Shown here one piece after another: positions 17,299-17,494 of a stretch of 64,000 nt of DNA. Source of the DNA: an uncultured Chlamydiae bacterium. Lineage in GTDB: Bacteria; Chlamydiota; Chlamydiia; Chlamydiales; JAJFMA01. The notes below the pieces were generated by a model that did not search any database, was not told the DNA's origin, and worked only from the letters and a program-made list of their open reading frames with translations. The stretch lies in NCBI GenBank assembly GCA_963713615.1, contig CAVQMM010000001.1:1888001-1952000 (forward strand). The letters run 5' to 3'. Position numbers and translations under genes: made by a program. Numbering within the stretch: the stretch's first letter is position 1; every line of letters begins with the position of its first letter.

Positions 17299-17494
17299 GG
17301 AATAGAATTAGGAGTAACACGGATGCACACGGATCTAGGAGGATTTAGGAGGATAGGAGAAATTCCTTGATCTATTCAATCCTAAAACCATTTTATCGTT
17401 TTAGAATGATGAACTAGTTTTTTCCATCCTATCCTCCTAAATCCTCCTAGATCCGTGTGCATCCGTGTTACTCCTAAAAAGCTGAACGAGCCGT
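17299..17494. mobile_element. Gene-less (non-autonomous) copy of the GxxExxY cassette, MITE/REPIN-like
   Basis: Inverted ~50-bp arms ggagtaacacggatgcacacggatctaggaggatttaggaggatagga; outer flanks match those of the arrays at 33518-34702. Confidence 0.85.

Follow-up and report, generated by a model that had tools for sequence, protein, structure and literature searches.

The 196-base hairpin at positions 17299-17494 is a gene-less member of a dispersed repeat family whose arms also bracket a GxxExxY gene 16 kb away in the same window, by which we mean the whole 64,000-nt stretch of DNA analysed here; positions given without a contig name count from its first letter. Paired copies of this family, which we call family A after its CACGGAT-type arms, are multi-copy, intergenic, inverted and hairpin-forming. 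Across genomes, GxxExxY genes and repeats behave as cognate pairs, and the arm motif follows the clade of the protein. We lean, with modest confidence, towards the reading that family A is a REPIN-like hairpin family mobilised in trans by its cognate PD-(D/E)XK nuclease, GxxExxY.

Table 1. The hairpin, the GxxExxY cassette and a hairpin of a third arm family in the window
Feature	Position	Strand	Remarks
Outer extension of left arm, purine-rich	17295..17307	+	Starts within the TAG stop (17294-17296) of the upstream gene for a 1937-aa protein
Left arm, 51 nt, family A	17308..17358	+	Core of two CACGGAT heptamers 10 nt apart
Spacer, 68 nt, 27.9% GC	17359..17426	+	Central motif, in one orientation, in 30/49 family-A elements
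Right arm	17427..17477	-	Exact reverse complement of left arm
Outer word 'X'	17478..17496	-	Small hairpin and T run, scored terminator-like
Gene-less hairpin, third arm family (CGCAAAG type)	18472..18567	.	At least 25 loci in the genome studied here (G000)
Cassette left side	33528..33738	+	Three tandem 75-nt units (X word and arm), from just past the folE stop
GxxExxY gene, 131 aa, open frame	33739..34134	+	PF13366 PDDEXK_3, TIGR04256; D78/E88/K90 present
Cassette right side	34132..34705	-	87-nt unit, six times in tandem and once in part; an inverted arm closes each of the six

The hairpin lies between the stop codon of a gene for a 1937-aa metallohydrolase-domain protein and a Ham1-family gene. 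A weak CT398-like match points to a host that is probably related to the chlamydiae. Its arms (17308-17358 and 17427-17477) are 51 nt each, 100% complementary and 68 nt apart, and the GC content of the spacer compares with 46.8% for the chromosome. Folded as RNA, the element reaches -121.7 kcal/mol (z = -16.5), and none of 200 shuffles was as stable. After the CACGGAT heptamer core, the left arm continues in purine tracts of AGGAGGAT type; family-A arms as a whole take this form, a direct heptamer array with purine tracts, and the GTAG or CGTC tag is absent. A 74-nt stretch of the hairpin (17421-17494) is 96% complementary to the left units of the GxxExxY cassette. The 1937-aa protein upstream (11483-17296) is itself built of three repeats of ~640 aa, with carboxypeptidase-regulatory-like and CehA/McbA metallohydrolase domains.

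The arm of this hairpin gives 78 match clusters on the chromosome and 71 loci with a match of at least 20 nt, and the 20-nt core of the family occurs in 80 forward and 81 reverse copies. Opposed neighbouring cores face inward, as in the cassette, in all 49 cases and outward in none, and one oriented spacer motif is common to 30 of the 49 elements. The closest relatives of the hairpin are 85-89% identical to it and sit at sites with unrelated flanks; no flanking DNA is common to different family-A loci. Arm-spacer-arm units have thus been copied over time to unrelated sites, which excludes segmental duplication. Since no pair of spacers exceeds 93% identity, no recent jump is documented. The orientation of the spacer shows no bias with respect to replichore. 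Family-A arms also stand around other cargo, namely a 122-aa ORF without a Pfam or NCBIfam match (G000:C1:674757-675208, L217) and an ABC transporter gene (G000:C1:1146442-1148394, L219).

The first-pass annotation had asked for a genome-wide count of the core and had named two findings that would sink its idea of moving cassette ends, namely that only these two loci exist and derive from a simple segmental duplication, or that the arms are the ends of a known IS. We consider either highly improbable. The hairpin is indeed the best match to the flank words of the cassette when set against 48 other elements (score 22, next 20), and the two have in common a rare left-word variant present at 4 loci only, as a duplication would have it. 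However, 71 loci with unrelated flanks are not two loci alone, and they refute the duplication half. As to the IS half, no transposase was found between or beside family-A arms, no IS-like multi-copy gene adjoins them, and no RAYT-type gene lies within 3.8 kb. An Rfam scan of the whole window returned RNase P as the only match at the gathering score, and the phage and plasmid records searched contain nothing that matches the hairpin.

Within a locus, the two arms are more alike than arms taken from different loci, both in the core (p = 0.010) and in the inner 15 nt (p = 0.0003), while the within-locus likeness of the outer 40 nt was reached in 0 of 20,000 permutations. A variant common to both arms occurs at 8 of 20 loci (3.4 expected). 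Arms alike within a locus beyond what other loci show point to one arm having been copied from the other. No target-site duplication was found for 46 family-A elements, in which the longest direct repeat between element flanks was 5.39 nt against 5.15 nt in controls; given fuzzy ends and no known empty site, a duplication of 2-4 nt could be missed. The family is missing in close relatives. The orthologous site in the relative G001 holds ~1.2 kb of unrelated ORFs and no arm, and is too diverged to define element ends. Inside G000 no empty paralogous sites were found for family A, and contigs from public runs, thin at a depth of ~2-3, contained no empty allele, no informative joint and no excision product; one RNA run had no coverage of the element, which carries no weight either way.

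The GxxExxY cassette is single-copy in G000 and occupies the convergent gap between folE and rnpB, its right side adjoining the 3' end of rnpB (34724-35101, minus strand). The third of its left units is shortened, reaches into the start codon of the gene and supplies an AGGAGG ribosome-binding-like site. This gap (33515-34723 and the orthologous gaps in G001-G004) is a hotspot with another repeat family or gene in each relative: in three same-genus genomes and in G004 it holds an AAG-type hairpin, a GAG-type hairpin, a repeat that we label RAYT-like for its likeness to repeats beside Y1 genes of G000, or another gene.

The protein scores above the curated cut-offs of both profiles (PF13366, 133.6 bits; TIGR04256, 135.1 bits). 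Its structural model (pLDDT 88.7) has a restriction-endonuclease-like fold, and all 65 aligned homologs keep D78, E88 and K90. The best Foldseek rows for the model are LHK-Exo, Cas4 and lambda exonuclease (E 0.001-0.006), followed by Hjc. By its modelled core with D...ExK the protein would resemble Hjc resolvase, Cas4, lambda exonuclease and the FdxN excision factor, but it matches these small PD-(D/E)XK enzymes at middling structural scores only: the best Z of a wide structure search was 8.5, and no Foldseek E fell below 0.001. No solved structure has sequence similarity to it at E up to 10. We therefore treat GxxExxY as a predicted PD-(D/E)XK nuclease on the basis of fold and D...ExK, bearing in mind that a fold gives a class and not a function or substrate. 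The PF13366/GxxExxY family is very large, with 7,979 matches among 7,997 candidates scored; with the single protein as query, a search of genome contigs gave 2 loci only; viral contigs gave 0. In a published table, PF13366 is entered as of unknown function and with 'multiple transfers' (PMC3424549).

Several properties that the first-pass annotation ascribed to the hairpin change when the whole family is considered. The sequence it quoted is present at 17299-17494; the spacing of '~65 bp' it placed between its quoted strings is in fact 116 nt, whereas the full arms are separated by 68 nt. It held that hairpin and cassette have the same flank words, and these are near-identical (18 of 19 bases on the left and 9 of 10 on the right, then divergence), but they are not the true outer flanks of the cassette. 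There, the left word is part of the 75-nt unit present three times, and the right word opens the 87-nt unit present six times and overlaps the stop codon of the GxxExxY gene. Nor does their asymmetry serve as an end signature: of 30 orientable elements, 11 have the left word on the outer side of both arms. It precedes 74 of the 161 family-A cores, and its 83 genomic matches (0-5 in three shuffles) include 56 that precede family A and 11 that precede a different arm family. We rejected the asymmetry as an end marker because the word also stands beside both arms and beside a third arm family. The AT-rich spacer is not a deleted form of the gene, to which it bears no similarity. No spacer of the family matches the GxxExxY gene, and the only matches, of 11-12 nt, are to the right-hand unit; a gene remnant was accordingly discarded, and the hairpin cannot be called a cassette with an internal deletion, as a MITE would be. 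The comparison with RAYT/REPIN fits, and genes and repeats co-occur as cognate pairs across genomes. Cassette-like flanks, offered as the best evidence of movement, are surpassed by an oriented spacer motif in 30 of 49 elements at unrelated sites, together with the lack of the family in close relatives. The cassette itself is single-copy, and no move of its ends was seen directly.

The relationship between gene and repeat can be followed into other genomes. We refer to the clade of the 33739-34134 gene, with GAT-type arms, as clade A, and to genes scored with GAG/AAG arms as clade B. Of 80 clade-A metagenome loci fetched, 66 had enough flank, and 51 of these carry inverted arms (score of at least 14). 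None of 29 distant-flank controls reaches that score, and 90 of 325 cross pairs do. The dominant heptamer spacing in these arms is 10 nt. On a quick tree of 116 proteins, one change suffices to separate GAT from GAG/AAG arms, a count favoured by unequal sampling, as the GAT rows are mostly metagenome loci chosen by clade-A patterns and the GAG/AAG rows come from one phylum. The tree also has 22 arm-less rows, of which 11 fall in one well-supported clade of PF13366 genes (L138, L139, L141, L143, L144, L146 and L148-L152), possibly a domesticated or functionally different branch.

Among 201 genomes of the phylum, 200 of them scored, the clade-A gene is present in G000 and G223 only, and the GAT-type repeat has 150 and 95 matches in these two genomes and 0-2 in the other 199. 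The three same-genus genomes likewise have 0-2. The repeat of G223 was predicted from its gene before the search, which gave the 95 matches against 0-1 in four controls, and a stricter pattern applied to 401 genomes yielded 145, 29 and 3 matches and three single matches. G004, which is outside the 201, has a clade-A gene and only 5 GAT matches; the arms of its gene are of a CGCCGAC variant, and a search with this motif gave 48 matches in G004 but none in any of four relatives. Two predictions that led from a gene to its repeat held. The clade-A gene of G223 has an in-frame stop. At three G223 loci (L213, L214 and L137) the arms are cut at the same point and continue in the same sequence, which presumably begins like the 5' end of a group II intron, and the arms may there serve as an intron target.

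For clade B, at least 19 matches to GAG/AAG arms occur in 18 of 21 genomes with a full gene and in 2 of 40 without, in a sample in which kin are not independent; the pattern used for family B has a 9-nt period, 10-nt-spaced GAG being the wrong one. Three genomes combine a full clade-B gene with few repeats (G035, 0; G036, 1; G003, 14), while G030 has 50 repeat matches with no gene found and G026 has 45 with gene fragments only. Such co-occurrence fits a protein that spreads the repeat, and it equally fits a repeat that arrives with the gene and is then spread by host processes.

G000 itself holds more than one such system. A second GxxExxY gene (G000:C1:1855034-1855620, L032), 39% identical to the first, lies between inverted arms of another type, with CACAGAG as their core, which are found at ~145 loci, many of which enclose other repeat families like nested dolls. 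For the third, CGCAAAG-type family no matching gene was found in G000; genes with arms of this type are present in G001 and G004. Another multi-copy element (28169-28215, 42269-42429 and 49416-49576; 161 nt identical in two copies) is also inserted inside family-A and family-B hairpins elsewhere.

The placement of family A invites an explanation that does without mobilisation by the protein. By our home-made gene calls, 58 of 62 family-A loci lie outside called ORFs and 4 touch one; by the same calls the loci favour convergent gaps, with 23 of 62 there compared with 248 of 1234 long gaps (p = 0.0015), and the median distance of the outer core is 37 nt to a neighbouring stop codon and 114 nt to a start. 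The arms might then be a cis-regulatory RNA of the nuclease gene: pairing between the 3' arm and the 5' arm, where the ribosome-binding site is located, would silence a harmful nuclease. The gene-less copies would owe their spread to template switching, slippage and recombination in the host, and their retention to a use as terminators or mRNA stabilisers. Beyond the proximity to stop codons and the bias for convergent gaps, this account can draw on the start codon within the left arm of the cassette, the great stability of the hairpin, the persistence of the third family without a gene, and the capacity of host processes to yield both tandem arms and arm matching. However, a pure cis role needs neither sequence-specific heptamers, phased at 10 nt and kept by protein clade across unrelated hosts, nor dozens of copies solely where the matching gene exists; and REPINs, in the available text of one study, have the same intergenic bias though they are spread by an enzyme (PMC3733652). 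We judge the RNA account rather unlikely, if worth serious consideration.

A different enzyme could also be responsible. G000 has six Y1/RAYT-type genes, at least four of which have a separate repeat family each (G000:C1:3873041, 3243412, 3256780 and 1042783), with copies of these repeats in the window at 11027, 46275, 48635-49182 and 61540; with its own repeat family for each of at least four such genes, the chromosome bears an unusual load of hairpin families. In two other genomes, GxxExxY cassettes are tied to IS5-type elements. From G387 all 17 stretches were fetched and 16 were usable, and these contain a 1564-bp unit in 16 copies with identity of 99.7% or more, 12 of them with 9-bp target duplications; in these units (L229-L244, for example L233) the IS5-type inverted ends abut the GxxExxY arms and enclose a DDE transposase and an intact GxxExxY gene. 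G017 has 60 PF13366 matches, and the 40 stretches fetched around part of them (L165-L204) contain GxxExxY hairpin cassettes, some full and some 5'-truncated, which are located at an IS5-type transposase's stop codon or between transposase fragments and have multiplied together with the transposase. We had considered multi-copy GxxExxY genes in G017 and G387 as a sign of self-mobility and rejected it, for these genes are IS5 passengers: it is the IS5-type transposase that moves them, and their copy number says nothing of mobility of their own. IS5-type units such as those of G387 are a possible route for the horizontal spread of the gene.

From such data one might suppose that family-A hairpins are non-autonomous and moved by a RAYT/HUH or an IS5-type DDE transposase, with GxxExxY a cargo once captured between arms. 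The Y1-type genes of G000, the family-A arms around the 122-aa ORF and the ABC transporter gene, and the carriage of cassettes in G017 and G387 all suit this idea, which we nevertheless find improbable. The distance from a Y1 gene to the nearest family-A arm is 3.8-113 kb (0 of 6 within 3.8 kb), and these genes have other repeats beside them. A tblastn search of G000 with two IS5-type transposases from relatives gave no match, and of the 132 genes that lie up to 400 nt from family-A loci a single one has a paralog of at least 80% identity. That no target duplication was found in the 46 elements also speaks against it, and a one-off cargo would yield neither arms at 51 of 66 loci nor the matching of motif to clade.

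Mobilisation in trans by GxxExxY, the reading we favour, is built on arms common to gene and hairpins, a fixed inward polarity, arm and spacer copied as a unit, tandem arm expansion, locus-specific arm matching, one motif type per protein clade, gene-repeat co-occurrence across genomes, and a modelled nuclease fold in which D...ExK is conserved. Under this reading, the GxxExxY protein would bind the phased heptamers of the arms, which at 10 nt, or one helical turn, apart lie on one face of the DNA, and would nick the extruded hairpin. Host repair might then copy the arm-spacer-arm unit to new intergenic sites, and fold-back synthesis could both equalise the arms and expand them in tandem. Insertion would occur with no fixed target duplication, and the surviving copies would be mostly those just past stop codons. 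The gene would stay single-copy, as RAYT genes do, move between lineages horizontally and, in some genomes, travel as a passenger of IS5-type elements. Several points count against mobilisation in trans: no empty allele, excision product or target duplication was found, the third family has no matching gene found in G000, the G223 gene has an in-frame stop, and one PF13366 clade is arm-less. A broader claim, which we put forward tentatively and would not yet bet on, is that GxxExxY represents a widespread and unrecognised class of mobilising enzymes, 130-aa PD-(D/E)XK nucleases with a clade-specific code of phased heptamers that carry out nick-primed fold-back copying of their own hairpins, with no DDE, HUH, serine or tyrosine recombinase, and that G000 has two live protein-repeat pairs and one orphaned family.

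Comparison with known systems places family A close to REPINs. In the available parts of the literature on REPIN-RAYT systems, both consist of an inverted doublet around a variable spacer that forms a long hairpin, in dozens to hundreds of intergenic copies (PMC3116915, PMC5581495, PMC3337134), and in both the enzyme gene is single-copy and lies between repeats of its own, a genome holds several cognate pairs, and the repeats form tandem higher-order arrays. On the same partial sources, however, the partner is a PD-(D/E)XK protein here and an HUH/Y1 tyrosine transposase in RAYTs, and the arm consists of directly repeated, phased heptamers here and of a short palindrome tagged GTAG or CGTC in REPs. 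RAYTs are, in the text available, mostly vertical, whereas the GxxExxY gene is patchy and mixed across lineages (PMC3424549). Family A is thus REPIN-like in behaviour, but fails REPIN membership on enzyme and arm type. TIRtrons, as the available description has them, likewise place an enzyme gene between long inverted repeats, and gene-less copies of these repeats make up a family of moderate abundance; their enzymes, in contrast, are tyrosine (HUH) transposases, and such genes in G000 have separate repeats of their own (PMC3733652).

Like an IS and its MITEs, family A has gene-bearing and gene-less forms with common inverted ends, and the accessible text on Thiomargarita offers a case of suggested PD-(D/E)XK MITEs, a hupL MITE proposed to derive from a PD-(D/E)XK_2 (YhgA) element (PMC4853749). 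Family A differs from IS/MITE pairs in its fuzzy ends, a spacer that is not gene-derived and a single-copy gene. It differs from the hupL MITE, as far as that source's available text goes, in that 10-bp direct repeats are given there and no target duplication was found here, and in protein family (PF12784 there, PF13366 here; PMC4853749). The TAACTGA repeats of Beggiatoaceae, in the available portion of their description, are also abundant intergenic heptamer arrays of uncertain origin for which a mobile binding protein was suggested, but they are direct, lie near start codons, have almost no inverted pairs and come with no identified nuclease partner (PMC4679880). In the main texts of the literature searched we found no description of the link between GxxExxY genes and repeats, and the sole passage on GxxExxY concerns reverse-transcriptase annotation; Elhai et al. 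2008, on small cyanobacterial repeats, may cover related repeats, and more repeat families are catalogued in the supplements to PMC3733652. What is added here is the presence of two cognate pairs in one chromosome, the two gene-to-repeat predictions that were borne out, the matching of arms within loci, and the carriage of the cassette by IS5-type elements.

Overall, these results provide a candidate cognate DNA substrate for PF13366, listed as function-unknown in the table cited above (PMC3424549), and with it a direct biochemical test. With two genes, two distinct arm codes and a natural variant code in G004, G000 is a good test case, and if the protein does mobilise the hairpins, specificity would be directly testable there by partner swap. 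It would also mean that the REPIN life-style, in which a single-copy enzyme goes with a population of hairpins, arose twice with unrelated chemistry, and many anonymous intergenic palindromes would gain an origin. The repeats take up well over 200 intergenic sites of the host, where they may influence termination and rearrangement.
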